A stretch of 64,000 bases of DNA from an uncultured bacterium (GCA_963768165.1 CAVYHJ010000006.1:20711-84710), one strand, 5' to 3'. Positions 9,653 through 44,849 are shown, numbered from the stretch's first letter. A program made the numbers and translations. The notes: generated by a model from the letters alone, not told the origin.

Positions 9653-10659
9653 GGTAATGTGTACAGACATATGGCGGGTTTTTTAGAATGAGGAGATGTC
9701 TATACGTATGGCAACGACGATTCAAGAGGAACGATTACGCTGGGTATTACCTATAATAAAGAAAGAGATACGGTTAAAGGAGGTGTGTAAGATTTGTCCA
9801 CACAGCCAACGAAGTTTGGAGCGATGGGCGGCGGCGTATCGGAAAGGAGGAGAGAAGGCTTTGGAGCCGCAATCCACCCGACCCAAAACTTGTACAAAAG
9901 AAACCACTCTCCGAGTGAAAGAGAGAATTCTGGAAATCCGGAAGAAAACGAAAAAGTGCGCTCTAAAGATCCATTGGCACTTGGCCAAAGAAGGAGTGAG
10001 GATTCATGCACGGACTATCGGGAAGATCTTGAAGAAAGAAGGGTTGGTGAGGAAATATCGGGTGAAGAAAATGAAATACAAGTATTTGAAAGCACCACGA
10101 TCGGTCGGTGAACTTCTAGAGATCGATGTGAAGTATGTTCCCGGAAAGGTAGCGGGACAACGCTATTATCAGTATACCGCCATTGATCTGGCGTCCCGCT
10201 GGAGACATTTGGCGGTCTATGACGAACAATCCAGTTTCCACTCTCTCCGGTTTTTAAAAGAGGTCCTGGATCGTTTCCCTCATAGAATACAAGCGATTAA
10301 AACTGACAACGGGGTGATCTTCACCAACTACTACACCGGCGTAAACAAACGCCGTGATCGAACCCTGAAAACCCTTCACCCGCTGGATGTCTTTTGCCAA
10401 GAAAGAAATATAGTGCATTATCTTATTGATCCGGGAAAGCCCGCGCAAAATGGAACCGTCGAACGAAGTCACCGGGAAGACCAGGAGAAATTTTATGACC
10501 AAAACACCTTCCAGAACTTCCAAGACTTGCAAAATAAATTGAAACGCTGGAATATAGAATACAATCATCTGGAACATTGCGGCTTACTGGGCAAATCACC
10601 CAATGAGTTCATGGCACAATACCAAAAACCTAAACCGCCAAATGTTCGTACCTAAAACA
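9653..10659 (+). mobile_element. IS481-family insertion sequence (~1.0 kb)
   Basis: Imperfect terminal IR cores GTACAGACATATGGCGG (9661-9677) vs reverse complement of CCGCCAAATGTTCGTAC (10635-10651); right end ...ACA at 10659; TTAA on both flanks (9649-9652, 10660-10663) as possible target duplication. Confidence 0.75.
9708..10655 (+). CDS. IS481-family DDE transposase
   Basis: N-terminal HTH, 'EIDVKY', 'YQYTAIDLASR', 'IKTDNG', 'PAQNGTVERSHR'; ATG 9708 chosen for RBS spacing (track start 9696). Confidence 0.9.
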   Translation: MATTIQEERLRWVLPIIKKEIRLKEVCKICPHSQRSLERWAAAYRKGGEKALEPQSTRPKTCTKETTLRVKERILEIRKKTKKCALKIHWHLAKEGVRIHARTIGKILKKEGLVRKYRVKKMKYKYLKAPRSVGELLEIDVKYVPGKVAGQRYYQYTAIDLASRWRHLAVYDEQSSFHSLRFLKEVLDRFPHRIQAIKTDNGVIFTNYYTGVNKRRDRTLKTLHPLDVFCQERNIVHYLIDPGKPAQNGTVERSHREDQEKFYDQNTFQNFQDLQNKLKRWNIEYNHLEHCGLLGKSPNEFMAQYQKPKPPNVRT

Positions 10660-12827: not shown

Positions 12828-13283
12828 ATGAAACGGAAAACAAGAAAAAAACTTGTACATACCACTATTATACAGGAATGGAAGTGTCGTTCCTGTAATA
12901 ATACAGCATGTGTCTTTTCCGCGGCTTGTTCCCATGTATATTTTCCTGACCAGATTCATTCACTATCTCCAATCTTAGTAAGGGGACTCCAAATAATGCG
13001 CAATTACCATCATTATCCGGATTTGCGTGTAACCGATATAGCCAAAACCATGCATTTATCCGTGAGGAAATTACAAAGCTTATTTCACAAAGAACTCCAT
13101 TATATCTTTCGCGACTATTTAAGCGAAATGCGCTTATCTCATGCCCGGAAAATGCAATTCGAACGCCCTTGGTTAACTCTTGACCAAATCCGCAAAAGAG
13201 TCGGGTTTGCCTCAAAAAATGGGTATTATTTCGCTCTCCATAAACAACAACAAAAACTTATTAAGCATTTTCTTAATTCATAG
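12828..13283 (+). CDS. Small AraC-type HTH regulator with a Cys-rich N-terminal segment
   Basis: 'LRVTDIAKTMHLSVRKLQSLF...FRDYLSEMRLSHARK...LTLDQIRKRVGFASKNGYY' is the AraC double HTH; no standard ligand-binding domain. Confidence 0.75.
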   Translation: MKRKTRKKLVHTTIIQEWKCRSCNNTACVFSAACSHVYFPDQIHSLSPILVRGLQIMRNYHHYPDLRVTDIAKTMHLSVRKLQSLFHKELHYIFRDYLSEMRLSHARKMQFERPWLTLDQIRKRVGFASKNGYYFALHKQQQKLIKHFLNS

Positions 13284-13390
13284 GAAGAATCTCTCATTTC
13301 CAACGAATTCCTGCCATTCTTTTATTCTCTAATTAAAAAATATCCCCCATAACATTCAAATCCACTCATTTTTTTTGCACATATTGGGAC

Positions 13391-13418
13391 TTGACAATTA
13401 AGAATTCAAGGTTAATAT
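13391..13418 (+). promoter_or_regulatory. Putative sigma70 promoter for the fibre-Rhs operon
   Basis: TTGACA 13391-13396, 16-bp spacer, TAATAT 13413-13418, ~130 bp upstream of the AGGAGG RBS. Confidence 0.35.
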
Positions 13419-13550
13419 TCTTGTACGATAATTTTAATTTTAGGGATAGGAAAGGGGTAAAAAAGAAGTAACTATCTGATCGACTATATGTCAACTCAAG
13501 GCTATAGTGACTCTTGTCCAGGAAAATAAAAATACAAAAGGAGGTTGCTT

Positions 13551-16500
13551 ATGTTCAAAAAGAACAATACGTACAGATTTAATTTTTTGATGTATCTTCG
13601 TTGGGTGGTATTAACAGGAATCTTATCTCTGTGCTTGTCTCAGGAAAGTTTGGCGAGTATTCCCTTTCAAATCAATATCCAAGGACAAGTGACGGATACC
13701 ACGGGGAATCCGGTGCCGGATGGAAACTACACTTTCACGTTTAATCTTTACGCGACCTCCGCCGGAAGTACTACGGCTTATATATATACAGAAAGTACTT
13801 CCAACTATCCAGTACAAAGCGGAATATTCAGTTATCTTTTGGGAACCAATAATGCGTTAACCTTACCGTTTGGAGTTCCTTATTGGCTGGGTGTTCAATT
13901 CAATAATGATCCCGAAATGACTCCCCGGCAGGAGATCGTTTCGGTGGGTAATGCCTATAAAGCATGGAATTCGGATAGTGCGGGTATAGCGGTATATGCC
14001 ATAGTTGCTGGTACTGCCTCTACTGCCAATAATGCTACTAATGCAATCAATGCCACGAATGCCAATTCTGCGACATTCGCTTTTACGGCCAGCACCGCCA
14101 CGACTCTGATTTCGGCTTCGAATATTTTGGGCGGTACACTGGCGAATACACTGTTGGATCCCACCGTTGCACTACTGACGGCCAACCAGAACTATACCGG
14201 GATTAATACATTCGGAGTGGTCACGGCAACCGATACATGGTCGTTGGTAACGGTTCAATCGGCATCCAGCACCAAGAACATCTGGGTATTAGATACGGTC
14301 AATGCACCCTATGTCAATGCGACCGTTAATTATGCGATAACCGCTGGGAGTGTAACAAGCGCCACGAATGCAGTTTTTGCCTATACCGCCAGCACCTCTT
14401 CCACGGCAATTTATGCCCTAGTTGCCGGTAATGCCTCTACTGCCAATAATGCTACTAATGCAATCAATGCCACGAATGCCAATTCTGCGACATTCGCTTT
14501 TACGGCCAGCACCGCCACGACTCTGATTTCGGCTTCGAATATTTTGGGCGGTACACTGGCGAATACACTGTTGGATCCCACTGTTTCATTACTGACGGCC
14601 AACCAGAACTATACCGGGATTAATACATTCGGGGTAGTCACGGCAACCGATACATGGTCGTTGGTAACGGTTCAATCGGCATCCAGTACCAAGAACATCT
14701 GGGTATTAGATACGGTCAATGCACCCTATGTCAATGCGACCGTTAATTATGCGATAACCGCTGGCAATGTAACAAGCGCCACGAATGCAGTTTTTGCCTA
14801 TACCGCCAGCACCTCTTCTACGGCAATTTATGCCCTAGTTGCCGGTAATGCCTCTACCGCCGATAATGCTACTAATGCAATCAATGCCACGAATGCCAAT
14901 TCTGCGACATTCGCTTTTACGGCCAGCACCGCCACGACTCTGATTTCGGCTTCGAATATTTTGGGCGGTACACTGGCGAATACACTGTTGGATCCCACCG
15001 TTGCACTACTGACGGCCAACCAGAACTATACCGGGATTAATACATTCGGGGTAGTCACGGCAACCGATACGTGGTCGTTGATAACAGTTCAATCGGCATC
15101 CAGCACCAAGAACATCTGGGTATTAGATACGGTCAATGCACCCTATGTCAATGCGACCGTTAATTATGCGATAACCGCTGGGAGTGTAACAAGCGCCACG
15201 AATGCAGTTTTTGCCTATACCGCCAGCACCTCTTCCACGGCAATTTATGCCCTAGTTGCCGGTAATGCCTCTACCGCCGATAATGCTACGAATGCAGTCA
15301 ATGCCACCAATGCCAATTCTGCGACATTCGCTTTTACGGCCAGCACCGCCACGACTCTGATTTCGGCTTCGAATATTTTGGGCGGTACACTGGCGAATAC
15401 ACTGTTGGATCCCACCGTTGCACTACTGACGGCCAACCAGAACTATACCGGGATTAATACATTCGGAGTGGTCACGGCAACCGATACATGGTCGTTGGTA
15501 ACGGTTCAATCGGCATCCAGCACCAAGAACATCTGGGTATTAGATACGGTCAATGCACCCTATGTCAATGCGACCGTTAATTATGCGATAACCGCTGGGA
15601 GTGTAACAAGCGCCACGAATGCAGTTTTTGCCTATACCGCCAGCACCTCTTCCACGGCAATCTTTGCCTATACGGCCAGCACCGCCACAACTCTAATTTC
15701 GGCAGCCAATATTAGCGGAGGAACTTTAGCCGATGCCCGATTGTCTTCAAATGTACCTTTTCTGAATGCGAATCAGACTTTTACAGGAATTAATGTCCTA
15801 GGAATAGTTACTGCGAATAATACTTGGTCTCTAACCACCATTCAATCCGGACTTTCAACCAAATATATTTGGGCAACCGATACCTTAAATGGTCCCACGT
15901 ATATTATTTCCACTGTAGCGTATGCCTATCAATCGGGAACTACCAGTTTTGCCAACGGAAATGCAATCTTTGCTTATACCGCCAGTACTTCTTCCACGGC
16001 AATTTTTTCCTATACGGCTTCTACGGCTACCACTCTAACTTCGGCAGCCAACATCGCGGGAGGCACTCTGGCAGATGCACGGCTTTCTACAAATGTTCCA
16101 CTATTAAATGCGAATAATACTTTTAGTGTAGCTAATTATTTTTATGGTGTTACTATCAGCAGTAACTGGAGTCCGTCACAAGAAACATCCTTGGTTGTGC
16201 AAGGTTCCTCGAATGGTTCTGGTTGGCCCGGAATGATGAGTATTGGTGGGAATGGACAAGTTTCAGTTTCATATGGAGGTATTGGTGCGGGATTATTTGG
16301 TGGTATCGGTGCCAACAGTGGTGGATCACATACTTATCAAGCCGGTCCAGGAGGGGCGGGAGCATATCTTTCAGGTGGTCAAGGAGGAATTAATTATGGC
16401 GGTGGTAACGGCAATGGGGGAGTAGGGTTAATTGTACTTGGTGGATATGATTCCAGTACGACTACTCGTTCGAGTGCGATCCAAGCGACAGGAAATATCA

Positions 16501-16856
16501 CCTTGGGAACAGGGTACACGGTAGATGGAGTAGATGTCAGCCAGCAAAATGCCACTTGGCTGGGGTCTACCGCTTCACAAACCCTCACCGCTGCTTCGTT
16601 TTATGATGTCGTTACATCGGTCAATTATGTTAATGGAGGAGTCAATGTAGCATGGTCAGCACCATTCACCCAGCCGCCCTCAATTACAAGCGGAATTCTT
16701 AATTCCAGTTATTCAACAGTTACTTCGTATGATGTTCAATGGACATACTCATCCAGTACCGTCGGCACCTTTCGGGTTAACTATCATACTGGTGTAACTT
16801 CTGGTGAAGCTGCCACCAATGCAGTGACTGTAATGATTCATACCATCGGAAAATAA
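13551..16856 (+). CDS. Large secreted tail-fibre-like repeat protein (Thr/Ala/Asn/Ser-rich)
   Basis: RBS AGGAGGT at 13539-13545; signal peptide; N-terminal 'INIQGQVTDTTGNPVPDGNYTFTFNLY...YWLGVQFNNDPEMTPRQEIVSVGNA' domain typical of chromosomal tail-fibre-like proteins; 'GTLADARLSSNVPFLNANQTFTGIN' fibre repeats; Gly-rich and beta-rich C-terminus; no S74 chaperone domain recognised. Confidence 0.7.
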   Translation: MFKKNNTYRFNFLMYLRWVVLTGILSLCLSQESLASIPFQINIQGQVTDTTGNPVPDGNYTFTFNLYATSAGSTTAYIYTESTSNYPVQSGIFSYLLGTNNALTLPFGVPYWLGVQFNNDPEMTPRQEIVSVGNAYKAWNSDSAGIAVYAIVAGTASTANNATNAINATNANSATFAFTASTATTLISASNILGGTLANTLLDPTVALLTANQNYTGINTFGVVTATDTWSLVTVQSASSTKNIWVLDTVNAPYVNATVNYAITAGSVTSATNAVFAYTASTSSTAIYALVAGNASTANNATNAINATNANSATFAFTASTATTLISASNILGGTLANTLLDPTVSLLTANQNYTGINTFGVVTATDTWSLVTVQSASSTKNIWVLDTVNAPYVNATVNYAITAGNVTSATNAVFAYTASTSSTAIYALVAGNASTADNATNAINATNANSATFAFTASTATTLISASNILGGTLANTLLDPTVALLTANQNYTGINTFGVVTATDTWSLITVQSASSTKNIWVLDTVNAPYVNATVNYAITAGSVTSATNAVFAYTASTSSTAIYALVAGNASTADNATNAVNATNANSATFAFTASTATTLISASNILGGTLANTLLDPTVALLTANQNYTGINTFGVVTATDTWSLVTVQSASSTKNIWVLDTVNAPYVNATVNYAITAGSVTSATNAVFAYTASTSSTAIFAYTASTATTLISAANISGGTLADARLSSNVPFLNANQTFTGINVLGIVTANNTWSLTTIQSGLSTKYIWATDTLNGPTYIISTVAYAYQSGTTSFANGNAIFAYTASTSSTAIFSYTASTATTLTSAANIAGGTLADARLSTNVPLLNANNTFSVANYFYGVTISSNWSPSQETSLVVQGSSNGSGWPGMMSIGGNGQVSVSYGGIGAGLFGGIGANSGGSHTYQAGPGGAGAYLSGGQGGINYGGGNGNGGVGLIVLGGYDSSTTTRSSAIQATGNITLGTGYTVDGVDVSQQNATWLGSTASQTLTAASFYDVVTSVNYVNGGVNVAWSAPFTQPPSITSGILNSSYSTVTSYDVQWTYSSSTVGTFRVNYHTGVTSGEAATNAVTVMIHTIGK
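13995..15662 (+). repeat. Four tandem near-identical 417-bp (139-aa) intragenic repeats
   Basis: Marker AGATACGGTCAATGCACCC at 14291, 14708, 15125, 15542 (spacing exactly 417); a few SNPs between copies. Confidence 0.95.
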
Positions 16857-16868
16857 AAGGAGGAAATT

Positions 16869-17435
16869 ATGAAAAAATTATTACTACTGTTTGTTTTATT
16901 GCCCTGCCTGTCATGGGCGCAGGTAACCTATAGTGGGGTGAGTATTGTTTCTATAATGACCACGAGAGATTCCCCACCTGAGATTACCGTGAGTGCGGGA
17001 TGTGTGTTCCGCGGTGTATCTTCCGCTCAAGCAAATCAATTGGGATTGATGGGTATTGGACGAGATTCAACCACCGAGTCAATAGTCACAACCTATAACG
17101 GATATGATCCACAAACCCAGCAAGCGTTTATTTTGATTCCCAATCAAACCTTTACCCTTCCCAATGATGGATTGACTTCGGACCAATATGTGACCTCGAT
17201 TCAAAATTATGTCGCGAAACGATATAAAATCTACGCCGACCAAATTACAGGCAGATTCTTCACGACTCCTAAGATAAAGAACAATATAAATTTGAATTCC
17301 TCGGTATCTCCTCAATATCAGGTGGAGAAATCGGAGAAGGAACACTACTCTTCCACTCAAACGGATAACGGCACAACGAATACGCCGAATGTTTTTTGGA
17401 ATAAAAATATCTTGGCATCCAATACGAAAGAATAA
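16869..17435 (+). CDS. Secreted hypothetical protein (fibre-Rhs operon)
   Basis: RBS AGGAGG; signal peptide MKKLLLLFVLLPCLSWA; 12 bp after the fibre gene stop. Confidence 0.7.
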   Translation: MKKLLLLFVLLPCLSWAQVTYSGVSIVSIMTTRDSPPEITVSAGCVFRGVSSAQANQLGLMGIGRDSTTESIVTTYNGYDPQTQQAFILIPNQTFTLPNDGLTSDQYVTSIQNYVAKRYKIYADQITGRFFTTPKIKNNINLNSSVSPQYQVEKSEKEHYSSTQTDNGTTNTPNVFWNKNILASNTKE

Positions 17436-17458
17436 AGTATTATATACGCGAGTTGCCA

Positions 17459-17487
17459 GTAGAGACGTTCCACCAGAACGTCTCTAC
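17459..17487. repeat. REP-like hairpin GTAGAGACGTTC-CACCA-GAACGTCTCTAC
   Basis: 12-bp perfect stem with the same arm ends as the 28-bp palindrome family; just upstream of the rhs RBS. Confidence 0.85.
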
Positions 17488-17509
17488 TATTCATGGAGGT
17501 ATAACGGTT

Positions 17510-20500
17510 ATGTATAAGAAAAAGTGGTTCTCTCGACTATTTATCGGTATATTCTTTTTTTTAATTGTATATTTATCTTTTTTACAAAACATATATGCAC
17601 TGGCGATTGATGGTGTTGCCTACGACGACTCTGCGTTTAATGGTGGGAATAGTAGTGTTTGCACTTCTATTTGGATTCATGTAATAGGTATTAATACAAA
17701 TGCTGCTGTTAATGGAGGATTAACTATTACTGTTGATGGCCAAGGAACTAACAGTGATACATTAGGAAGCTTGGATACATGTTATGATCTTTATACGAAT
17801 GATGAAATAGATACGTATAATCGGTTATGTCAATATAGTTATTGTTTTGTTACGGCTTCGTATACGGATGATTCTGGAAATATCACTACTTACCCTTGTG
17901 AACAAAGTAACACAAATGGTATGTATTGGACTATTTATGGTGTTACTGATTCTACTATTTTGATTTGTAATCCTGCTCAAGGTTGGGCTTGTGGCAGTGA
18001 CGCTGATACTAATCCTGACGATTTAAATACTTCTCAAGCGTGCTTTACTGGAAATGATCTTTGGTTGAATGTATTCTCTGGAGGTAATCCAGGGTTTTAC
18101 AATGGACCCCATACAATAACGGTAACACAATTTTATGCGACTTGGACATCATTCCTGACCGATGCAGGGACCTATCCATGTCAGGGTTTTGAAGGTGTTA
18201 CTGTAAATTATTATTTACTCTCTAGTGACGCTGTATCTTCAACAATAGATTTTGAAAATACACTTCCCGGAGTTAACGCCTGTTCTCAATCCGTTGACTC
18301 CTCTATTGAGCCTACATTCTGTGAATTGGGAGTTTGTATATATCCCTTTTGTTTTGCTAAAAACAAAATATATACTCTACAAAATGATATTACCATGTCG
18401 GGAACCCCTGGATTATCAATGACCCGGGCCTATAATCTGCGTCAACCTTTTAGTGATTACAGTGTAGCAAACGGGTTTTATGAAATGGGCTATGGATGGT
18501 GGTCGGAGTATTCTCAATGCATTGAAGACAATTATGGATGGGTCTACTATTTTGATGAAACCGGCAGGAAAATTTATTTTCAAAGGACGACTCCTTATTT
18601 CTCAGATTATCAACCAAATCTAACAGAATACTACTGCCAGGAGACGGAATACGTTCTTACAAAAACTAATTCCATGGAAGAGGAGGTTGTGGGAGATACG
18701 CTTGGACAGCAAAATCAAGGATATCAGTATACTTTAATAAAAGGTAACGGCTGTTGCGGTGGTGGATATAAAACGTTGACGTTCGATAAACTTGGAAGAA
18801 TAACGCAGATTGCAGATTCTAATAATAATACAATTAATATTGATTATTGTCTTAACCATGATCAATTTGGTTGTCTTACTGAAGACTGGACATATACACC
18901 GCTTACAACACAAATCTATAATTCCAATGGACAAGTTATTCACCTAATTAGATATAATATCGGAGATGAAACAACTAAAATTCAGTATGCGGTATGTTAT
19001 AACACCAATGATCAAAATTTATCGATTTTGACTGTAAAGTATAATTATGACGGTTATGACAATTTAACCAGTGTTATCAACCAAGGAGGGCAAACTGCCA
19101 GTTTTATTTATTCGGATGCGGCGAATCATCAACTTTCACAATATATAAATATCAATGGAGAAACCACAAATTGGGTTTTTGATACCAATGGCGTTTGTAC
19201 GAATACCAATGTCAATGGAATCTTCAGTCTATTTACATATAATTTTCAACCTACGAACAATCTTACCATTCAGGCAGATACGGCTAATAAACAGGTCATT
19301 TATCATTGGCTGAATAACGGAATTGTTACTGGGAAAGACTATCCCGATAATTCTTCAACACAACAATTCCCCGACCAATACAATAACATCACTACGGCCA
19401 TCAATGAAAATGGCGATACAACGAATATGTTTTATGACGCATACAATAACCTTACGACCGCTATTGATTATGCGGGGAATACCACCCAATATTTTTATGA
19501 TGATAATTTTGAAGTATGCACCACCTTGATCAATGCCGCAGGACAGCAATATAACTTTTTACTGGATGGAAACGGGAATATTACCACCATGATTTTCCCG
19601 GATTCCTCCCAATGGTACGCCTATTACGACAGTTCCGGGAATTTAACGACATTGGTCAATCCCTTGGGCTATGCTTCGTATTACTTCTATGATGTGTATG
19701 GGAACCCCTCGGGGTTTCAAGATCCTCTGGGGAATCAGAGTTTTACTTTTTATGACAGTTTTGGAAATCTAACCGCCACCATCAATGCGTTATCCCAACA
19801 AGTGGAATTCCAATATGATACTCTTGACCGGGTTACAGCGGTGCTAATGCCCTTGGGTCGCAATTCGTATCTTTCGTATAATAACACCTTCAATCCCATC
19901 TCCGCCATAGACCCCATGGGACATCAAACCCAGTTCCAGTACGATAGTTTGGATAGACTCACGAGTACTTTGTCCGCGGCATCCACCTCTATTTCCAAAT
20001 ATTATGACAACTATAGCCTGTTAACCACGGGAATGGATGAAAATGGCAATCCAACTTTTTATCAATATGACAGTTGTAGTAGATTAATTCAAGGTATAGA
20101 TGCCGCAGGGAATTATAGTCAGGTTTATTACGATGCCGCCAGCCAGGTGACCTCGGCACGTAAACCGGATGGAACTTTATTACCCCGTTGGTACGATGTT
20201 TTGGGACAGGTTACCGCCTATGTTCATGGAGAAACCCAAGGATTAGTCACTACTTTTCAATGGTACGACGTGTTGGGGAATTTAACGACGGTCTACGACA
20301 TCAATCAAGGTTATACTCAATATTACTATGACCTCATGGGACGGATTACCACCAAATGTTATTCCACTTATACGGTTTCCTATTTTTATGATGTATTGGG
20401 ACGAAAGACGGCATATCTTGACCCGCAGGGGAATCTTTTCACGTATACCTATGATGCGGACAATCACCTGATTTCCCTAAACAATTGGGCGAACCAGACG

Positions 20501-22300
20501 ACCTCTTATAGTTATGACGCCTTGGGAGAGGAGACCGCAGAGTATTATCCCAACGGTACGATAATGAATTATTATTATGATGTTTTGGGTGAGCTGACAT
20601 CCATCCAATTTTCTTATGCCCCCGTGGGAGAACAGAATGCGCAGTATTATGCCAATGGTAAGAGAATGAATTATTCCCATAATGCCTTCGGGAGACTGAC
20701 ATCCATCCAAATTTCAAACAACTATGCTTATGGACAAACTTCTTCCATACTGTTGAATGCGGGGAGTCAGGAAACCAGTACGAATTATGGGTTGCAACTG
20801 GCCATCGGAGATACAGTAATTGGCCAATCCTCCTCGGCAAATTATACCGTTCATTGGGGACTGGGACAATTTAATTATATGAATCCTTCCACTCTTAATT
20901 ATATAAATCCATCTACCTTGCAAGTGTTGGCGTATGCGTATGATTCTGTGGGGAATAGGACTTTGCAAGTAGACATCTCCAATAATTCCACCTTCTATTA
21001 TTACGATACTTTGTATCGTCTCACGACCGAGCAACGGATTGGAACCAATGCCTACACGCGAAGCTATACCTATGACCCTGCCGGGAATCGGACCCAGATG
21101 CTGATTCTGTCCGATAGCACATCTACTACCACATATATCCTGAATAACTTGAACCAAATCACCGCTTCCACGACCAATGGGGTGGAAACCCTTTACTCCT
21201 ATGATGCCAATGGGAACTTGCTCTCCAAAGGAAGTACGTCCTATTTGTGGAATAAAGACGACCAACTCATCACCGTGTTCTTGAGTAACGATACGGTGAG
21301 TTATCTCTATGATTCCTTTGGACGAAGGTCCCAGAGGGTACATGGGAATTCGACTACAAACTATCAATTGGAAGGGTTGGATACACAAATTGAATTAGAC
21401 AACAGCACAGTCCAGCGAACCTATACTCTATCGGGAGGACTCACCGGACAAATCATTTCCGTTCGATATAACGGGGATGATTACTTCTATCACTATGATT
21501 CTTGGGGAAATGTTCTATTTATTACTGATTCTTCAGGAGCTATTGTTTCTTCCTATATCCAGGAAAGTTTCGGAAATGTTCTTGATAACCTAATTGGGTT
21601 TCCTATACAACATAATTTACAAAGTGAATATCAAGAGGGTCCTCCAAATTATTATCACTTAAATACGGGGGAACTGGACCCGGTCACAGGTCTCTACCAT
21701 TGTCAATCTCGTTGGTATGATCCAACCTCTGGAACATGGATTTGTAACGATTATTATAAATATAGTAGTTATAAATCTAATTCTAATAATAATCCTAATT
21801 CATTAATTTTAAAGCCAGTACCTTTAGAATTAGATCCACAACTTATTGACCTTATAATAGCATTTTCTATGCCGGGAGGAAACGAAGGTAAAGCGGGCGA
21901 AGGGTTGTTGTCTAAAATATGCAAAATAAAATATATACCGATTTGGGGTAGAACTTTTCTGGGGGAAGGAACTCTTGGGGTGGCCAAAGAGGGTTATGGA
22001 TTTACATCCTTTGAGGCTCTTAAAAAATATTTAGGGGATCCTGGACCGAATAATGTATGGCATCATATTGTGGAACAACGGGAGCCAAATGTATTACGAT
22101 TTAAACCATGTAATATTCATAATACTAAAAATGCAATTGCTGTAAGTAAGGAAATTAATCAAAAAATTGCCGATTATTTTTCTTCAAAACAACCCTTTAC
22201 TGAAGGAATGACTCTTAGAGAGTGGTTAAATAATCAGCCCTATGAGGAACATTACAAACGGGGAATAGAAGCATTAAAAATTTATGGTGTGTTAAAATAG
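17510..22300 (+). CDS. Rhs/YD-repeat polymorphic toxin with signal peptide and C-terminal HNH-like nuclease
   Basis: GGAGGT RBS then ATG 17510 (MYKKKWFSRLFIGIFFFLIVYLSFLQNIYALA); DUF6531-like 'NDITMSGTPGLSMTRAYN'; many YD repeats; 'LDPVTGLYHCQSRWYDP'; tip 'WHHIVEQ...IHNTKNAI' resembles the HH-type nuclease toxins paired with DUF2019. Confidence 0.9.
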   Translation: MYKKKWFSRLFIGIFFFLIVYLSFLQNIYALAIDGVAYDDSAFNGGNSSVCTSIWIHVIGINTNAAVNGGLTITVDGQGTNSDTLGSLDTCYDLYTNDEIDTYNRLCQYSYCFVTASYTDDSGNITTYPCEQSNTNGMYWTIYGVTDSTILICNPAQGWACGSDADTNPDDLNTSQACFTGNDLWLNVFSGGNPGFYNGPHTITVTQFYATWTSFLTDAGTYPCQGFEGVTVNYYLLSSDAVSSTIDFENTLPGVNACSQSVDSSIEPTFCELGVCIYPFCFAKNKIYTLQNDITMSGTPGLSMTRAYNLRQPFSDYSVANGFYEMGYGWWSEYSQCIEDNYGWVYYFDETGRKIYFQRTTPYFSDYQPNLTEYYCQETEYVLTKTNSMEEEVVGDTLGQQNQGYQYTLIKGNGCCGGGYKTLTFDKLGRITQIADSNNNTINIDYCLNHDQFGCLTEDWTYTPLTTQIYNSNGQVIHLIRYNIGDETTKIQYAVCYNTNDQNLSILTVKYNYDGYDNLTSVINQGGQTASFIYSDAANHQLSQYININGETTNWVFDTNGVCTNTNVNGIFSLFTYNFQPTNNLTIQADTANKQVIYHWLNNGIVTGKDYPDNSSTQQFPDQYNNITTAINENGDTTNMFYDAYNNLTTAIDYAGNTTQYFYDDNFEVCTTLINAAGQQYNFLLDGNGNITTMIFPDSSQWYAYYDSSGNLTTLVNPLGYASYYFYDVYGNPSGFQDPLGNQSFTFYDSFGNLTATINALSQQVEFQYDTLDRVTAVLMPLGRNSYLSYNNTFNPISAIDPMGHQTQFQYDSLDRLTSTLSAASTSISKYYDNYSLLTTGMDENGNPTFYQYDSCSRLIQGIDAAGNYSQVYYDAASQVTSARKPDGTLLPRWYDVLGQVTAYVHGETQGLVTTFQWYDVLGNLTTVYDINQGYTQYYYDLMGRITTKCYSTYTVSYFYDVLGRKTAYLDPQGNLFTYTYDADNHLISLNNWANQTTSYSYDALGEETAEYYPNGTIMNYYYDVLGELTSIQFSYAPVGEQNAQYYANGKRMNYSHNAFGRLTSIQISNNYAYGQTSSILLNAGSQETSTNYGLQLAIGDTVIGQSSSANYTVHWGLGQFNYMNPSTLNYINPSTLQVLAYAYDSVGNRTLQVDISNNSTFYYYDTLYRLTTEQRIGTNAYTRSYTYDPAGNRTQMLILSDSTSTTTYILNNLNQITASTTNGVETLYSYDANGNLLSKGSTSYLWNKDDQLITVFLSNDTVSYLYDSFGRRSQRVHGNSTTNYQLEGLDTQIELDNSTVQRTYTLSGGLTGQIISVRYNGDDYFYHYDSWGNVLFITDSSGAIVSSYIQESFGNVLDNLIGFPIQHNLQSEYQEGPPNYYHLNTGELDPVTGLYHCQSRWYDPTSGTWICNDYYKYSSYKSNSNNNPNSLILKPVPLELDPQLIDLIIAFSMPGGNEGKAGEGLLSKICKIKYIPIWGRTFLGEGTLGVAKEGYGFTSFEALKKYLGDPGPNNVWHHIVEQREPNVLRFKPCNIHNTKNAIAVSKEINQKIADYFSSKQPFTEGMTLREWLNNQPYEEHYKRGIEALKIYGVLK

Positions 22301-22317
22301 CAATTAGGGAGTTATAT

Positions 22318-22665
22318 ATGAAAAATTTAGATAAATTAATTAATAAATATATTGAAGCTGCTATCCTGCAAGGAAAGGCAACGAATGAGGCAAAATCTAA
22401 AACAGGAAATCAGCAATATACTATTATTTCAAAGATTTATCATCAATTAAAAAATGATCCAGAAGTTGGATTATTACCTTTGGTTAAATTGTTAAATCAT
22501 TCCAATGATTATGTAAAATTATGGGCAGCCGCACAAACATTATCAATAGAACCTAAAAAAGCCGAGAAGGTACTTCTGGAGCTAAGCGAAAAACCAAGAT
22601 TTCTAGGGTATAATGCTAAAATGACTTTGGAGGAATGGAGAAAAAAAGGGGAACTGAAGTTTTAA
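22318..22665 (+). CDS. DUF2019-like immunity protein, copy 1 (probable cognate)
   Basis: Directly after the toxin; 'SKTGNQQY...LVKLLNHSNDYVKLWAAA...AEKVL...AKMTLEEW'. Confidence 0.8.
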   Translation: MKNLDKLINKYIEAAILQGKATNEAKSKTGNQQYTIISKIYHQLKNDPEVGLLPLVKLLNHSNDYVKLWAAAQTLSIEPKKAEKVLLELSEKPRFLGYNAKMTLEEWRKKGELKF

Positions 22666-22666: not shown

Positions 22667-23008
22667 ATGATGAATTTTGATAGGCTAATCAATAAATTTA
22701 TTAATACCGCAATTTTGCATGGAGAAGCATCTAACGAAGGAAAATATATAATTGCATACCGACAATATAAAGTTGTTGTAAATATTGTTAATAAACTAAA
22801 AAATGATTCAATGGTTGGACTTTCTCCATTAATTCCACTATTAAAACATCCCAATGATTATGTAAAGTTAGCCGCAGCTGCTTATACTTTTTCCATAGCG
22901 ACACAAAAGGCTGAGAAAGTACTCATAGAACTCAGTGAAAAACCAAAAACATTAGGGCTTAATGCCACAATCATCTTAAGAGAATGGAAGAATGGAAACA
23001 TGCATTAA
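22667..23008 (+). CDS. DUF2019-like immunity protein, copy 2 (divergent)
   Basis: Paralogue of copies 1 and 3: 'LLKHPNDYVKLAAAAY...AEKVLIELSEKP...LREWK'. Confidence 0.78.
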   Translation: MMNFDRLINKFINTAILHGEASNEGKYIIAYRQYKVVVNIVNKLKNDSMVGLSPLIPLLKHPNDYVKLAAAAYTFSIATQKAEKVLIELSEKPKTLGLNATIILREWKNGNMH

Positions 23009-23018: not shown

Positions 23019-23369
23019 ATGAGTATAAGAAATTTAGATAAATTAATTAATAAATATATTGAAGCTGCTATCCTGCAAGGAAAGGCAACGAATGAGGCAA
23101 AATCTAAAACAGGAAATCAGCAATATACTATTATTTCAAAGATTTATCATCAATTGAAAAATGATCCAGAAGTTGGATTATTGCCTTTGGTTAAATTGTT
23201 AAATCATTCCAATGATTATGTAAGATTATGGGCTGCTGCACACACGTTATCAATCAATCCCGAAAAAGCTGAGAAAGTACTTATGGAACTCAGTGATAAA
23301 AAACCATTTTGGGGGTTTAATGCTAAAATGACTTTACAGGAATGGAAAAAGGGAAGCTTAAATTTTTAA
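23019..23369 (+). CDS. DUF2019-like immunity protein, copy 3
   Basis: First ~190 bp nearly identical to copy 1; 3' third diverged. Confidence 0.8.
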   Translation: MSIRNLDKLINKYIEAAILQGKATNEAKSKTGNQQYTIISKIYHQLKNDPEVGLLPLVKLLNHSNDYVRLWAAAHTLSINPEKAEKVLMELSDKKPFWGFNAKMTLQEWKKGSLNF

Positions 23370-23431: not shown

Positions 23432-24211
23432 GTGATACAACAATTTTATATTCTGAAACCCGAAGGGGATGAATTATTTGGGACGAAATTTGCCTATGGA
23501 CAGATGGGAACGCCGTATTCATTAGGAGATTGTGAGTATTGTCCAAAGTGTCATTCAGCGGTTAGTATGTTGTTATGGCTTCCGCTCCATCGCTTAGAGT
23601 TATCTTCCTCGAAACCAGAGAAATGGGGTGATTTCTTATTTGGAGCAGATTATCACCCCTTTGTTTCAGCAAAATTTAAAAGTATCTTTGAGCAAGAAGA
23701 ATTGAAAGGGTTGATAACGTTCCATCCACCAGCAAAGATTATTAAACTGGGGACTAAAAGTCCTAAGGATGTTATCGAGTCTTTACCGGTTTATCATATG
23801 ATGGAAATTCCTTGTGAGGGAGCAGAAATTGATATTGAAGCATCCCACATGGTATACAACAAGCCATCCAATTGTGATAAATGTAAACAATCAAATCGGA
23901 TTTTTAAAAGTCATAAAGGATTAATAATTAAAGAGAATTCCTGGATAGGGTTGGATATCTTTCGACCATGGGGTGGTTTGAATTATATTTTTGTTACCGA
24001 AAGATTCAAATCTGTATTAGAAAAATACAAACCGACTAACTATTTATTATATCCCGCAGATCAATGGTGGGAAGAAGAACCCAATTTGAATCCCTTTTAT
24101 ACGCATGAAGATGCTAAAAGGGAAAAGGAACTAGCGGAACAATTTAGAAGAAGTATGAAAGATGCAAAAATTACAATAACCCTTCCAAAAGGATTTCAAA
24201 ATAAAACGTAG
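23432..24211 (+). CDS. Orphan putative immunity protein (Imm11/DUF1629-like, two CxxC motifs)
   Basis: 'CPKC...LWLP', 'WGDFLFG', 'CDKC', 'LDIFRPWGG..IFVTERF' resemble immunity proteins found with HNH/AHH toxins; position in the array. Confidence 0.55.
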   Translation: MIQQFYILKPEGDELFGTKFAYGQMGTPYSLGDCEYCPKCHSAVSMLLWLPLHRLELSSSKPEKWGDFLFGADYHPFVSAKFKSIFEQEELKGLITFHPPAKIIKLGTKSPKDVIESLPVYHMMEIPCEGAEIDIEASHMVYNKPSNCDKCKQSNRIFKSHKGLIIKENSWIGLDIFRPWGGLNYIFVTERFKSVLEKYKPTNYLLYPADQWWEEEPNLNPFYTHEDAKREKELAEQFRRSMKDAKITITLPKGFQNKT

Positions 24212-24336: not shown

Positions 24337-25077
24337 ATGGATCTTGATGAAGAAATAAAGAAAAGTTTAAAACATTCTGAGGATTTGAAAAAGTCTGGAT
24401 TAGGTCCAAAAGACGTCCGAAAGTATATTCGGAAACATTTTAAACCTTTTGCCAAAGAATATGGTTTCCAATTTCGGACCCAAATTACACTATATCGGAT
24501 CCATCAAAATGTACTTCATTCACTAGGGTTTGAGAATCTCTCCAGCGGCTTTACCTGTCAAGTTGCGATTCAACCATTATATTATCCTGGCGATTCATAT
24601 TTTTTTAATTTCGGTGATAGAATCAGTAACTTTAAAGTTCATCTTTTAGAAACTTGGGATTATCTATATCCAGAGAAGGGTGTTCTTGAGATATTAGAGC
24701 TAGTGAAACGAGATGTACTCCCTTGGTTTGACAAATTTGGACACCCCGCAGGTATCATAGATTTTGTTGAAAATTATAAGGAGTATAAAAAAGAATATGT
24801 GTATTGTAGAATCTCACCAGATGCTCGTGAAGAGAGTGCCTGTTTTAGTTATCTATATCTAGGACAATATCAAAAAGCGACTGAATATTTAAAAAAAGGT
24901 ATTGTGTTATTGAAACAAATTATACAAGAACATCCTGAATGGTCAGTTGACTGGCATGGGAAAGAGTTAGCTATGTATGAACATTTATTGGGTTTAATTC
25001 AAAATGATCCTCCTAAAATAAAACCTCAATTAGATGAGTATATTCAATATACCAAGAAAAATTTGAAAATTGAATAA
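24337..25077 (+). CDS. Orphan putative immunity protein (DUF4304-like)
   Basis: 'FKPFAKEYGF', 'QPLYYP', 'LPWFDK' and a helical TPR-like tail; AT-rich; position in the array. Confidence 0.5.
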   Translation: MDLDEEIKKSLKHSEDLKKSGLGPKDVRKYIRKHFKPFAKEYGFQFRTQITLYRIHQNVLHSLGFENLSSGFTCQVAIQPLYYPGDSYFFNFGDRISNFKVHLLETWDYLYPEKGVLEILELVKRDVLPWFDKFGHPAGIIDFVENYKEYKKEYVYCRISPDAREESACFSYLYLGQYQKATEYLKKGIVLLKQIIQEHPEWSVDWHGKELAMYEHLLGLIQNDPPKIKPQLDEYIQYTKKNLKIE

Positions 25078-25134
25078 AAATATTTGTTTTATGATAAAGA
25101 TTATATTCTTGTTAATTCTGTACAACCATTTTAT

Positions 25135-27203
25135 CCCGTTGGTATGATGTTCTAGGACAAGTTACCGCCTATGTTCATGGAGAAACCCAAGGGTTAGTCA
25201 CTACTTTTCAATGGTACGACGTATTGGGGAATTTAACGACGGTCTATGATATCAATCAGGGATATACCCAATATTACTATGACCTCATGGGACGGATTAC
25301 CACGAAATGCTATTCCACTTATACGGTTTCCTATTTTTATGATGTATTGGGACGAAAGACGGCATATCTTGACCCCCAAGGGAATCTTTTCACGTATACC
25401 TATGATGCGGACAATCAACTGATTTCCCTAAACAATTGGACAAACCAGACGACTTCGTATAGTTATGATGCCTTGGGAGAAGAGACCGCAGAGTATTATC
25501 CCAACGGTACGAGAATGAATTATTACTACGATGTTTTGGGGGAACTGACATCCATCCAATTTTCTTATGCCCCCGTGGGAGAACAGACCACTATGAGAAT
25601 GAATCCTTACCATAATGTCGTCGGGGGACCGACATCCATCCAATTTTCAAACAACTATGCCTATGGACAAACTTCTTCCATACTGTTGAATGCGGGGAGT
25701 CTGGAAACCAGTACGAATTATGGGTTGCAACTGGCCATCGGAGACACGGTGATTGGCCAATCCACCTCAGCGAATTATACCGTTCATTGGGGACTGGGAG
25801 AATTTAATTATGTGAATACATCCACTATACAGGTGCTGGCGTATGCCTATGATTCTGTGGGGAACCGGACCTTGCAAGTAGACCTTTCTAATAATTCTAC
25901 CTTCTATTATTACGATATCTTGTATCGGTTAACCACCGAGCAAAGAATTGGAACCAATGCCTATACGCGGATCTATACCTATGACCCTGCCGGGAATCGG
26001 ACACAGATGTTGATTCTATCCGATAGCACATCTACTACCACCTATATCCTGAATAACTTGAACCAAATAACCGTTTCCACGACCAATGGGGTGGAGACTC
26101 TTTATTCCTATGATGCCAATGGGAACTTACTCTCCAAAGGGAGTACTTCGTATCTGTGGAATAAAGACAACCAACTCATCTCCGTGTTCTTGAGTAACGA
26201 TACGGTGAGTTATCTCTATGATTCCTTGGGACGAAGGTCGCAGAGAATACATGGGAATTCGACTACAAATTACCAGTTGGAAGGGTTGGATACCCAAGTT
26301 GAATTGGACAATAGCACAGTCCAGCGAACCTATACCCTATCAGGAGGACTCACTGGACAAATCATCTCCGTCCGACACAACAATGCCGATTATTTCTATC
26401 ATTACGATGCCATCGGAAACGTATTATTCATCACCGATGCATCGGGAGCCATTGTTACTGCCTATACCCAGGAAGGGTTTGGAAATGTCTTGGCAACCCT
26501 GAGCAACTTTAGCAACTCTTACCACTTAACCACCAAAGAACAAGACCCGGTAACAGGATTATATTACTTTGGTGCACGATGGTACGACCCGCAAGTGGGA
26601 AGATGGTTATCTAGAGAGCCGACAGGACAAGATGGGCCGAATTTGTATCGTTTTGGATTTAATAATCCGGTTAATGGTTTTGACCCGAATGGGCTATCTT
26701 ATATAGAATTTTTTAGGGGGGATGATATGATAGGCACATTGTATGTTTTTGATAAAGACGATAATCTTATACGTTCTATACCTGCGGGAAATCAGACTTG
26801 CGGAGTAAACCCCAAAACAAAGAAAAAATTTACCCCTCTTCCAGACGACACCTATACAATTACAGGAAGGCCAAGGAAGGCGTATTCAAAAAACAAAAAA
26901 GATATAACCTTAAATGGAAAACTTGGGGCATATGTAATACCTATTAATGATTATACAGATGAAGATGGTGTTTTACATGATGCATTAAGAATCCATGGAG
27001 GAAGAGGAAATTTTACTTTTCCACATTGTACAAATGGTTGTATTCGTATTTCAAACGATGACGCAAAATGGTTTTATGATAATTTTGGCGTTAAAAGTGG
27101 ACAATATTATAATGACCAATTAGAATATATTAGCATAGAAACACTAGATGATCCTGATTTTCAATTTCTTGTAAATGGGAATGCGGAATTTATAAAAAAT
27201 TAA
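25135..27203 (+). pseudogene. Silent 5'-truncated rhs cassette (orphan toxin module) with L,D-transpeptidase-like/Tlde1-like tip
   Basis: 25135-~26400 is a close copy of 20184-~21490; frame opens after TAA at 25113-25115 with no ATG or RBS; canonical 'NPVNGFDPNGL' junction; tip 'LRIHGG...TNGCIRIS'. Confidence 0.85.
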
Positions 27204-28134: not shown

Positions 28135-28220
28135 GATGCCGCCAGCCAGGTGACCTCGTCTCGTAAACCGGACGAAACCGTATTCCCCCGTTGGTATGAT
28201 GTTCTAGGACAGGTTACCGC
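28135..28220 (+). repeat. 86-bp third copy (stump) of the rhs core segment
   Basis: Matches 20132-20217; shares TATGATGTTCTAGGA with the orphan cassette rather than TACGATGTTTTGGGA of the main gene. Confidence 0.9.
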
Positions 28221-28356: not shown

Positions 28357-29232
28357 TTATTTTACTCCAATTTTCCAAACACCTTTTTCAAGAAACGCTT
28401 CTATAGTTTGGCGATTTGCTTTATTGATCAAATTAGAGTGGGAAAGTTTATATTTTTTGGCATACTCTGCCAGGGTCATGATGTTCGCACCTTCCAGATA
28501 CGCCAGTCTCTTGTGATAACTATTGGTAAGCGCTTTCCCAACGATTTCCTCCATAATTTTCGCAGTCTTCTTATCGTCAAATTCCCTAAACGCTTCGTAA
28601 TACATTTTTCTATCCATGAATTTAATATTCACTGGCACGAAACCTTCCCGTATCAACAAATAATTATTGATGACTCTTCCGATACGTCCATTACCGTCCA
28701 CAAAGGGATGCGTATGTTCAAAAGTAAGGTGTAATAGGGCAATCCTCTTGATAATATTTTCATGGCTGTTGGCATTATACCCTGCCATCATTTTCTCCAA
28801 TCTTCCTACGACTTCTTTGGGATCTGGCGCGATATGGTTTGCTACCCTGACCCATTCACCGTCTTTACGGAATCTTCCGGCAATATCATCTCGAATATTC
28901 GCAATCAGCATTTTGTGAAGCGACACAATTATATCCAGGGTAAGCTCTTGCTCTTTGGCTTTTGTTTGAATGTAGGACACGATCCGCGCGAGGTTTTTGG
29001 CTTCAAATATTTCTCTTTCTGTAATGTATCTATCCAAATTTATTTGTAAAAGGATTTTTTCTGTTTCTTCCAAAGTGAGAGTGCTGTTCTCTATGGCATT
29101 GGAGTTATACACTTGCTCAGCGACTTCAGCTTCATTTATTAATTGTATGAGCGCCTCTTTACCAACAACCACATTATAATAACGCTCTCGTAAACGTTGA
29201 ATTGCATTGAAGATATGTAATATTTTTGCCAT
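28357..29232 (-). CDS. Fic-family protein (AMPylase-type)
   Basis: Intact Fic motif 'HPFVDGNGRIGR'; 'VYNSNAIENSTLT'. Confidence 0.93.
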   Translation of the reverse strand: MAKILHIFNAIQRLRERYYNVVVGKEALIQLINEAEVAEQVYNSNAIENSTLTLEETEKILLQINLDRYITEREIFEAKNLARIVSYIQTKAKEQELTLDIIVSLHKMLIANIRDDIAGRFRKDGEWVRVANHIAPDPKEVVGRLEKMMAGYNANSHENIIKRIALLHLTFEHTHPFVDGNGRIGRVINNYLLIREGFVPVNIKFMDRKMYYEAFREFDDKKTAKIMEEIVGKALTNSYHKRLAYLEGANIMTLAEYAKKYKLSHSNLINKANRQTIEAFLEKGVWKIGVK

Positions 29233-41327: not shown

Positions 41328-42665
41328 TTGGAACACACCATGGAGAACCTTTCTGAGCTAACCCCACTTGCCGACCGGATGAGACCCAGGTCACTGGATG
41401 AAGTGGTTGGACAAGAACATTTGGTCGGGCACGGAAAAGTCTTACAACGCGCTGTCGAACAAGACACTCTTCAATCGTTTATTCTCTGGGGTCCCCCCGG
41501 AACCGGGAAAACCACCATTGCCAAATTGGTCGCTTCAAACATTAATGCACAGTTTATCAATCTATCCGCGGTTACTTCCGGCATTAAAGAAGTTAAAGAA
41601 GTCATGAAATCCGCGGAACAACAACAATCCATGTTTCACCGAAAAACCATTTTATTCATTGATGAAATTCACCGTTTCAATAAATCCCAACAGGATGCCT
41701 TTTTACCTTACGTTGAAAAAGGTATTATTATTTTTATTGGCGCTACCACAGAAAATCCGTCTTTTGAGGTAAATTCGGCACTCTTATCGAGATGCCAGGT
41801 ATATGTATTGAATCCTCTTACAGAAGAACAACTTGCCATATTAATTGGCAGGGCATTGCAAGATTCGGAACGCGGGTTGGGATATATGAAAATCACCTTA
41901 TTGCCGGATGCGCAAAGATATGTTACTTCCATGTCGAACGGGGATGCCCGTGTCACAATGAATACTTTGGAATTATCAGCAATACTCGCAGAACCTGACA
42001 AGGATCAGGTGAGAATTATCACTAAAGAAATTGTTCAACAGGCTTTGCAAAAACGGGCAACTCTCTATGACAAATCCGGTGAAGAGCACTATAATTTGAT
42101 TTCAGCATTACATAAAAGTATTCGAGGAAGTGACCCGGACGGAGCTGTTTATTGGCTGGCACGAATGCTGGAATCGGGGGAGGACCCGTTATATATCGCC
42201 AGACGCGTGGTTCGAGCGGCTGTAGAAGATATTGGGAATGCGGCACCCAATGCCCTGTCTGTTGCTTTAGCCGCCAAAGAAGCTATTGATTTTTTAGGTA
42301 TGCCGGAAGGGAACCTGGCATTAGCACAAGCTGTTATCTATTTGGCATGTGCACCCAAATCCAATGCGATTTACGCAGCCTATACAGAGGCAGCGAAAGA
42401 TGTACAGGAAAAAGAAAATATGCCGGTTCCACTACATTTACGGAACGCACCGACAACTTTAATGAAAAAGCTTAATTACGGAAAAGATTATAAATATGCT
42501 CATAATTATCCGGATCATTATATTGAACAAGAATATTTACCGGAGAATCTAGCCGGCCGAATTTATTACCAACCGGATGGCCAGGGATATGAAGCAGAAA
42601 TTCTAAAAAGGATGAATCAATGGCGGAAAAAAGCTCCTCTCAACTCGTTGCAGAACAAACAGTAA
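41328..42665 (+). CDS. rarA: Replication-associated recombination protein A (RarA/MgsA)
   Basis: 'PLADRMRP', 'WGPPGTGKTT', 'DEIHRFNKSQQD', 'ISALHKSIRGSDPD', 'EDIGNA'. Confidence 0.95.
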   Translation: MEHTMENLSELTPLADRMRPRSLDEVVGQEHLVGHGKVLQRAVEQDTLQSFILWGPPGTGKTTIAKLVASNINAQFINLSAVTSGIKEVKEVMKSAEQQQSMFHRKTILFIDEIHRFNKSQQDAFLPYVEKGIIIFIGATTENPSFEVNSALLSRCQVYVLNPLTEEQLAILIGRALQDSERGLGYMKITLLPDAQRYVTSMSNGDARVTMNTLELSAILAEPDKDQVRIITKEIVQQALQKRATLYDKSGEEHYNLISALHKSIRGSDPDGAVYWLARMLESGEDPLYIARRVVRAAVEDIGNAAPNALSVALAAKEAIDFLGMPEGNLALAQAVIYLACAPKSNAIYAAYTEAAKDVQEKENMPVPLHLRNAPTTLMKKLNYGKDYKYAHNYPDHYIEQEYLPENLAGRIYYQPDGQGYEAEILKRMNQWRKKAPLNSLQNKQ

Positions 42666-43609: not shown

Positions 43610-43618
43610 AAGCAAACT

Positions 43619-44842: not shown

Positions 44843-44849
44843 ACTATTT

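Follow-up and report, generated by a model that had tools for sequence, protein, structure and literature searches.

A candidate coupling of a chromosomal Rhs polymorphic toxin to a tail-fibre-like surface protein in an uncultured bacterium

The sequence analysed is a 64-kb window from an uncultured bacterium (GCA_963768165.1, CAVYHJ010000006.1:20711-84710), and all coordinates given below count from its first letter. It holds a locus of plus-strand genes, as judged by open reading frame (ORF) analysis, that encode in order an AraC-type regulator, a secreted tail-fibre-like protein resembling the mosaic adhesive trimer (MAT) fibres of Bdellovibrio bacteriovorus (Caulton et al. 2024, PMC10769870), a 188-residue secreted protein, and an Rhs toxin, with genes of immunity type behind the toxin gene (Table 1). 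An initial annotation of this DNA had proposed that the fibre, the small protein, and the Rhs toxin form a device for toxin display and delivery, and had placed the locus at 12828-22665. Its ORF positions, the single strand, the ribosome-binding site (RBS) before each of the fibre, 188-residue, and Rhs genes, and the short gaps (12 nt from the fibre gene to the 188-residue gene and 74 nt from there to the Rhs start) were borne out by ORF and start-site analysis, and no intrinsic terminator was found between these genes. The Sec-type signals that it had assigned to all three proteins were likewise recognized, by eye: MFKKNNTYRFNFLMYLRWVVLTGILSLCLSQESLA followed by S in the fibre, MKKLLLLFVLLPCLSWA followed by Q in the 188-residue protein, and MYKKKWFSRLFIGIFFFLIVYLSFLQNIYA followed by L in the Rhs protein, where the 16-residue hydrophobic core could be an uncleaved anchor. 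The start of the locus was kept and its end moved from 22665 to about 28220, behind an orphan Rhs C-terminus and then an Rhs scar.

The fibre gene, in which AAAGGAGG lies 6 nt before the ATG at 13551, encodes a protein that had no match in Pfam, PHROGs, NCBIfam, or the PDB sequences. Its conserved N-terminal domain (N-domain) was detected with a profile that gave 1.4e-61 at the fibre gene, the sole match in the window. The initial annotation had called this domain common, and an exhaustive HMMER search agreed, returning 17,980 cluster representatives at E<=1e-3 and 4,469 at 1e-10; a word-index search with the same domain gave one fragment. In members of the family the domain always stands immediately behind the signal peptide, and the C-terminal partners in an 89-member sample include Peptidase_S74, phage Collar, collagen, and Gp10_C domains. 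The AlphaFold2 model of the window domain is a beta-sandwich with a mean predicted local distance difference test (pLDDT) score of 84.5, for which no specific relative was found in the PDB or BFVD. A phage origin of the fibre was considered and rejected, as the protein had no PHROG match and a single N-domain locus was found in 2.9 million viral contigs. The domain is cellular: species-representative genomes gave 290 confirmed stretches, and metagenomes gave more than 416.

The candidate link between the Rhs gene and the fibre gene is a module of three SxNYxL units inserted between YD repeats of the Rhs shell. A hidden Markov model (HMM) of this module, built from 14 fibre-adjacent proteins of other loci and none from the window, matched the Rhs insertion with an independent E-value (i-E) of 1.1e-8 (29.8 bits, model positions 4-52 of 55). 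Among 440 ORF segments of the window it matched only the Rhs gene and the copy of the module in the orphan Rhs fragment; the next best segment scored E 1.9. Elsewhere the module consists of three S-x-N-Y-x-L...G units and is usually N-terminal, behind a signal peptide, followed by domains that are pilin-like, dockerin, Fn3, PKD, Peptidase_C13, beta-propeller, type IX secretion system (T9SS) C-terminal, or Rhs/Tc-like, Tc denoting the toxin complex. Pfam holds no model for it. No PDB chain matched the module, the solved Rhs, Tc, and teneurin structures included, and thus it is not a general Rhs feature. The possibility that it is a diverged YD repeat was rejected, as the other YD repeats of the window Rhs protein score below 0 against the model.

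Table 1 Features of the fibre and Rhs locus, in window coordinates
Feature	Position (nt)	Strand	Remarks
AraC-type regulator, short, 151 aa	12828-13283	+	Pfam HTH_18 only, E 1.3e-9
Promoter-like site TTGACA-N16/17-TAATAT	13391-13419	+	Upstream of fibre gene; consensus scan 10/12, consensus match only
Fibre gene, 1101 aa from likely start ATG 13551 (ORF 13545-16856)	13551-16856	+	Secreted, tail-fibre-like (MAT-like)
Fibre N-terminal domain, conserved beta-sandwich	13656-13970	+	Directly after signal peptide
Tandem repeat in fibre stalk, 417 nt (139 aa)	13995-15668	+	4.0 copies, 97% identity
Fibre C-terminal (distal) domain	16098-16853	+	Common to relative P0014 (alignment A3); no Pfam family
Small secreted protein, 188 aa	16869-17435	+	Preceded by AAAGGAGG; no family match (Pfam, NCBIfam, PHROGs)
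Hairpin, 13-bp stem, no T-run	17458-17488	+	Between 188-aa and Rhs genes
Rhs gene, 1596 aa from likely start ATG 17510 (ORF 17453-22300)	17510-22300	+	GGAGG before start
Rhs Cys-rich N-terminal domain	17600-18364	+	15 Cys in first 400 residues, 13 within domain
Triple SxNYxL module, 53 aa	20714-20872	+	Between YD repeats of Rhs shell
Rhs C-terminal toxin domain	21740-22297	+	After Rhs core; contains VWHHIVEQ motif
DUF2019 paralogue 1	22318-22665	+	Pfam E 6e-7
DUF2019 paralogue 2	22667-23008	+	Pfam E 1.6e-7
DUF2019 paralogue 3	23019-23369	+	Pfam E 5.3e-9
Small gene	23432-24211	+	Of this gene and the next: weak Imm11, Gmx_para_CXXCG matches below curated cut-offs
Small gene	24337-25077	+	See preceding row
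Orphan Rhs C-terminal fragment (ORF 25224-27203)	25124-27203	+	Copy of Rhs 20173 onward, 88-93% identity
Module copy in orphan Rhs fragment	25647-25805	+	i-E 1.1e-9
Candidate immunity gene for orphan toxin, 271 aa	27309-28124	+	Position only; no family match
Rhs scar, 86 nt	28135-28220	+	88% identical to Rhs 20132-20217; far edge of Rhs region

The association of module and fibre was followed in 160 fibre loci (here numbered with the letter L), which are the 80 top matches from each of two scans of collections, together with a single viral match, and are no census; they were located with the closer alignment set A3, the profile of 89 N-domain proteins being too diverse. Module matches numbered 70, in 67 of the 160 loci, and all 70 lay on the strand of the fibre gene, at a median gap of 46 nt from the fibre ORF. 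Most of the module-bearing loci (53 of the 67) were outside the HMM seed, and where at least 5 kb was available on both sides, 24 of 37 loci carried the module. The window pair has the same arrangement, with the fibre gene ending at 16856, the module-bearing Rhs gene starting at 17510 on the same strand, and one gene between. In two Saccharibacteria metagenome-assembled genomes (MAGs) the module and the fibre N-domain are joined in a single ORF (L070:59-2341 and L078:8984-10663), which reads as a signal peptide, the module, a domain of about 230 residues, a membrane helix, a short basic loop, a second signal-like hydrophobic segment, and finally the fibre N-domain. Judged from these gene arrangements, which recur in many bacterial phyla, the conserved unit is a fibre N-domain gene plus a module-bearing gene. 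In the window the module-bearing gene is the Rhs toxin, and therefore fibre and toxin probably belong to one surface device.

Toxin genes occupy the position beside the fibre gene in few of these loci. Rhs or Tc-like genes adjoin same-strand fibre genes in six (L033, L036, L038, L107, L083, and L124), and the toxins of L033, L107, L083, and L124, loci of different architecture, bear the module. The Rhs genes that adjoin the fibre genes of L036 and L038 gave no significant module match. L038 repeats the window order of fibre gene, small secreted protein, signal-peptide Rhs gene, immunity gene, and orphan Rhs C-terminus. The remaining 154 of the 160 loci have no Rhs gene. Among them are L080 and L081, which hold the closest fibre relatives with genomic context (53-56% identity), and the 188-residue protein was found in none of the 160 loci; the exact set of AraC, fibre, 188-residue, and Rhs genes is thus not conserved. 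The initial annotation had made its proposal depend on synteny of the N-domain with Rhs genes, and the search upheld it to the extent of the six loci with Rhs or Tc-like genes and not for the nearest relatives or the small protein. Of the device that it envisaged, functional coupling of fibre and Rhs toxin through the shared module, recurring in at least four other loci, stands as probable, and the particular gene set does not.

A recurrent locus type was seen in Omnitrophota or Planctomycetia MAGs (L033:3708-13401, L036:2693-13075, L107:227-7587, and L124:5649-12214). In it a separate SpvB-like gene precedes a short fibre gene, the C-terminus of which is of the phage Collar type, and a toxin gene with LamG, FG-GAP, TcdB-mid, and RHS domains comes last. 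A methyltransferase gene sometimes follows the fibre gene, and no TcA gene is in view.

An Rhs gene could stand next to a fibre gene by accident. On such an account a Sec-exported Rhs island landed beside an unrelated pair of adhesin genes, and the insertion in its shell has no delivery role. Rhs loci are recombination hotspots, and this one carries an orphan C-terminus and a scar and has insertion sequence (IS) elements nearby. The base composition steps along the locus, from a GC content of about 0.48-0.49 in the fibre repeats to 0.37-0.42 in the Rhs gene and 0.31-0.34 in the immunity genes. The fibre gene has a promoter-like site of its own, a strong hairpin separates the 188-residue and Rhs genes, and most fibre loci do without an Rhs gene, all of which would fit chance neighbours. 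However, the sole two module matches in 64 kb are the Rhs gene and its copy, and these adjoin the sole fibre N-domain gene; moreover, the pairing recurs in other loci of different architecture. We consider an accidental neighbourhood unlikely.

Our preferred reading, which we put at a probability of roughly 0.55, is that a MAT-like cassette for a surface fibre is coupled in function to a chromosomal Rhs polymorphic-toxin locus, in which the three DUF2019 genes are immunity candidates and the orphan C-terminus is Tlde1-like. The partner of the Rhs toxin would thus probably be the fibre and not a type VI secretion system (T6SS). Several observations weigh against this reading. The fibres of L080 and L081 pair with module proteins that are not toxins. 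The module is internal in the window Rhs protein and usually N-terminal elsewhere. Rhs residues 1-401 (including the Cys-rich domain and DUF6531) had no match in a word-index search of 5.8 billion proteins and the 188-residue protein has only four relatives, so that conservation of the whole cassette cannot be demonstrated. The GC steps are compatible with a mosaic, independently acquired Rhs island. Finally, a diderm host would need a further step of export, through the outer membrane, which this reading leaves unexplained.

The module also resembles part of a pilus component. Pam pili are recently described donor-strand-exchange pili of candidate phyla radiation (CPR) bacteria, the pam operon of which is accompanied by a tail-fibre-like gene, as noted by the authors who described them (bioRxiv 10.64898/2026.03.03.709456). 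The SxNYxL module corresponds to positions 29-77 of the NCBIfam model of the tip pilin PamT (NF058579). Positions 29-76 of this independent model matched, in the Rhs insertion, the same 50 residues as the module HMM (E 6.1e-5, 22.5 bits, against an equivalog cut-off of 240). The same model matched the fibre-adjacent module proteins at E 1e-7 to 1e-18, all under the equivalog cut-off, and loci of CPR bacteria place genes for PamT-like proteins and for pam-like chaperones beside the fibre gene. Unlike PamT, the Rhs insertion matches the module part only and lacks the truncated Ig-like pilin C-domain. Of the 160 loci, about 14 have genes for pam-like chaperones and pilins along with the fibre gene, versus 67 that have the module, and no such chaperone or pilin gene was found in the window.

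These relationships raise the alternative that the module is a tag of general use, which sorts or anchors proteins to some surface structure or route of assembly; Pam-like pili and an envelope polymer would be examples. Fibre and Rhs protein would then both use that structure without binding each other, as co-regulated surface proteins rather than one device. The presence of the module as the N-terminal part of PamT-like pilins and the loci in which pam-like chaperones and pilins accompany the fibre gene speak for this alternative, as does the great diversity of the domains C-terminal to the module, which is as expected of a generic tag. The window and most module-bearing loci nevertheless lack any pam-like chaperone or pilin, and the module genes are tightly linked to fibre genes in spacing and strand, to the point of fusion in L070 and L078. 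Its internal place in the Rhs shell is also unlike that of an N-terminal sorting signal. On balance a tag shared without a complex seems improbable to us.

A complete pam-like operon was observed at L051:2400-8395 (CAZKWX010000004.1), and another is present at L063. The MAG that contains L051 is labelled uncultured Bdellovibrionales, and the fibre gene downstream of the operon encodes more than 3498 aa. Besides a PamT-like gene and two pilin-like ones, the L051 operon comprises three genes for PapD-like chaperones, which have membrane helices at the C-terminus. As Pam pilins have been reported to be exclusive to CPR bacteria, either the L051 contig is mis-binned or the system is more widespread.

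Rhs toxins are commonly T6SS effectors, and T6SS substrates are loaded from the cytoplasm. The window toxin could in principle be cargo of a T6SS encoded elsewhere in the genome, and the orphan toxin does resemble Tlde1, a known T6SS effector family. When 49 ORFs of the window were scanned with Pfam, PAAR, VgrG, Hcp, Tss, phage-tail, and T9SS C-terminal domains were all absent, confirming what the initial annotation had reported for all of these except Tss. The Rhs protein thus lacks PAAR, and it has instead a Sec-type signal or anchor and a Cys-rich domain of exported type. We regard delivery by a T6SS as very improbable.

The order and spacing of the genes, the domains that they encode, the homology of the module, and its statistical link to fibre genes are results of the analysis. 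The mechanism that we infer comprises a physical complex, surface display, delivery to target cells, an immunity role for the DUF2019 proteins, and a role for the 188-residue protein. Sec would export the fibre, the 188-residue protein, and the Rhs protein. The fibre, probably a trimer like the MAT fibres, would hold its conserved N-terminal beta-sandwich near the cell and present its variable C-terminal domain outward. The module would tie the Rhs cage to the fibre, either directly or via a shared surface structure, so that fibre contact would bring the toxin to a neighbouring cell, and the cognate DUF2019 proteins would protect kin. In the simplest form of this scheme the three-unit module would dock on the N-domain. 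As the conserved part of the fibre is its cell-proximal N-terminal end, such docking would place the toxin at the base of the fibre and not at its tip.

Extending this beyond the window, the module may be a pseudo-threefold docking cap that fixes a single copy of cargo to the N-domain of trimeric MAT-like fibres, the cargo being pilin-like proteins, enzymes, dockerin proteins, or whole Rhs or Tc-like cages. We offer this generalization tentatively, with the odds against it. The docking of PAAR-Rhs proteins on the VgrG trimer in the T6SS offers a likeness of logic only: a three-part module would cap a trimeric fibre-like partner, an analogy drawn because the module has three repeats and MAT fibres are trimeric. 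There is no sequence relationship to the PAAR-Rhs/VgrG assembly and no sheath, tube, or baseplate; the window proteins are Sec-exported, and their interaction is hypothetical.

MAT fibres carry a conserved beta-rich N-domain of about 130 residues immediately after the signal peptide and are trimeric; the cell-surface partner of this domain is unidentified, and no toxin partner was described (PMC10769870). The window fibre has a comparable plan of a signal peptide followed by a beta-rich N-domain without a PDB homologue, a long fibre, and a variable tip, and as in MAT fibres some members of its N-domain family end in Peptidase_S74. The window N-domain fits the MAT N-domain by the published description. 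The sequence link between them is indirect and runs through L051, a member of the window N-domain family, the fibre of which matches the Bd2133 structure 8OND and carries, besides this N-domain, at least 20 capping-loop motifs of the MAT kind. In contrast to MAT fibres, the window fibre lacks an S74 domain and the capping-loop motif V-G-G/N-x-x-x-P-x-x-x-L, and its stalk is an apparently recent 139-aa tandem repeat; it could belong only to the non-S74 MAT type. Diverged copies of the stalk repeat run on to about 16136 with spacings of 336 and 342 nt. The relative P0014, of 408 aa, has the same N- and C-terminal domains as the window fibre and lacks the repeats. The repeat expansion looks recent, and fibre length may be variable.

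The Rhs protein shares with Rhs/YD-repeat toxins such as those of E. coli and Dickeya and WapA of B. subtilis the YD shell, DUF6531, the DPxGL motif, and a variable C-terminal toxin, as well as small immunity-type genes downstream, an Rhs scar, and an orphan C-terminus that is displaced and has the 3' core in common with the main gene. Like WapA, it has a Sec signal in place of PAAR. It differs from these toxins in having no PAAR or VgrG partner, no cell-wall-binding repeats, an N-terminal Cys-rich domain without detectable relatives, and the module in its shell. A likeness to the TcB-TcC part of Tc (ABC) toxins is found in L033, L036, L038, L107, and L124, in the form of SpvB, FG-GAP, TcdB_toxin_midN, and RHS domains. 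Unlike these, the window Rhs protein and its neighbours have no SpvB, FG-GAP, or TcdB domains by Pfam, and no TcA gene was seen. Features of contact-dependent inhibition (CDI) systems (the two-partner secretion domain, filamentous haemagglutinin repeats, and CdiB) had no Pfam match in the fibre, 188-residue, and Rhs proteins or their neighbours.

Several trafficking domains are known to direct Rhs proteins: PAAR to the T6SS, LXG/WXG to the type VII secretion system, SpvB to Tc toxins, and a plain signal peptide in WapA. With a new module that ties Rhs cages to adhesins resembling tail fibres, a further route of delivery would join these, one acting in lineages that are mostly uncultured and often predatory or epibiotic. 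In our searches of the literature we found no earlier account of Rhs toxins linked to fibres. The pairing is a testable candidate answer to two questions, namely what the Bdellovibrio MAT N-domain binds and what keeps a tail-fibre-like gene together with the pam operon of CPR bacteria. If the docking-cap proposal were true, it would identify the cell-side partner of the MAT N-domain and would describe a modular, Sec-dependent means of display and delivery across CPR bacteria, Omnitrophota, Planctomycetota, Bdellovibrionota, and other phyla, with a logic like that of PAAR on VgrG yet unrelated to T6SS, CDI, or Tc-A. Based as it is on 160 loci and simple HMMs, the association lends itself to a quick check across genomes and by the prediction of multimers.

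The protein encoded between fibre and toxin belongs to a small family. The mature N-terminus QVTYSGVS is invariant among its five known members, and no member was found in genome contigs by profile search or by exact look-ups of the window protein, P0002, and P0003. Its AlphaFold2 model (pLDDT 55) was too poor for a fold search. Membership in the SxNYxL-module family was rejected by the module HMM and by hhalign (probabilities below 1%), and homology to the small proteins behind other fibre genes was likewise rejected (hhalign below 1%). Because its gene lies directly 3' of the fibre gene, our guess is that it is a lineage-specific fibre accessory that serves as assembly factor or as adaptor. 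The region between this gene and the toxin (17436-17512) folds with -24.7 kcal/mol (z -3.1), and the outer helix of the hairpin pairs two bases of the Rhs Shine-Dalgarno sequence. The hairpin may lower Rhs expression relative to the fibre genes.

The assignment of the toxin gene rests on its Rhs repeats (PF05593, E 2.9e-52 in eight stretches; TIGR01643, E 4.1e-33; YD_repeat_2x), together with DUF6531. The core motif DPVTGL stands at residue 1390 (nt 21677), with about 200 unrelated residues after it. The Rhs core model TIGR03696 gave a weak match in the main gene (E 1.6e-4, below cut-off) and a clear one in the orphan copy (1.4e-18). The C-terminal toxin domain had no credible Pfam or PDB match at E<=1; its VWHHIVEQ motif may resemble those of HNH/EndoVII 'WHH'-type nucleases. 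The immunity-type genes that the initial annotation had placed after the toxin proved to be three DUF2019 paralogues, the first of which begins 18 nt past the Rhs stop, and by this position they are candidate immunity proteins; our searches found no literature linking DUF2019 with immunity. Copies 1 and 3 share 90% DNA identity and the middle copy is 69% identical to the first. The occurrence of three such genes behind a single toxin suggests that immunity genes accumulated from past toxin swaps. The two small genes that follow may be immunity or orphan-immunity genes. The orphan Rhs fragment ends in a YkuD/Tlde1-like L,D-transpeptidase toxin (YkuD E 5.7e-8; weak Tlde1_dom match, E 1.6e-3). 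The Rhs locus is a typical polymorphic-toxin array.

At the other end of the locus, the AraC-type protein has one HTH_18 region, which is C-terminal, and no ligand-binding domain; its weak NCBIfam matches are AraC-family regulators. The Rhs locus appears to be situated in a variable island. Pfam identified two IS elements, a Fic gene, and a type IIG restriction enzyme in the window, along with housekeeping genes elsewhere in it (recA, recX, carD, serS, and glycolysis genes). The Fic/DOC gene (28357-29232, minus strand) and an Eco57I/MmeI-type IIG restriction-modification gene (31027-33894, minus strand) lie just past the Rhs scar, and an IS481-like integrase gene (9696-10655, plus strand) and a DDE transposase gene (34055-35557, plus strand) flank the wider region. 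Farther away, at 56778-59760 (minus strand), lies a cluster of small genes, one or more of which encode an N-terminal methylation (pseudopilin) motif. The cluster could belong to a system for type II secretion or type IV pili, and it might be relevant to how Sec-exported proteins cross an outer membrane. Genes for a MoxR AAA ATPase, a DUF58 protein, and a transglutaminase-like (TgpA) protein at 42620-47150 (plus strand) look ordinary and unrelated to the fibre and Rhs genes.

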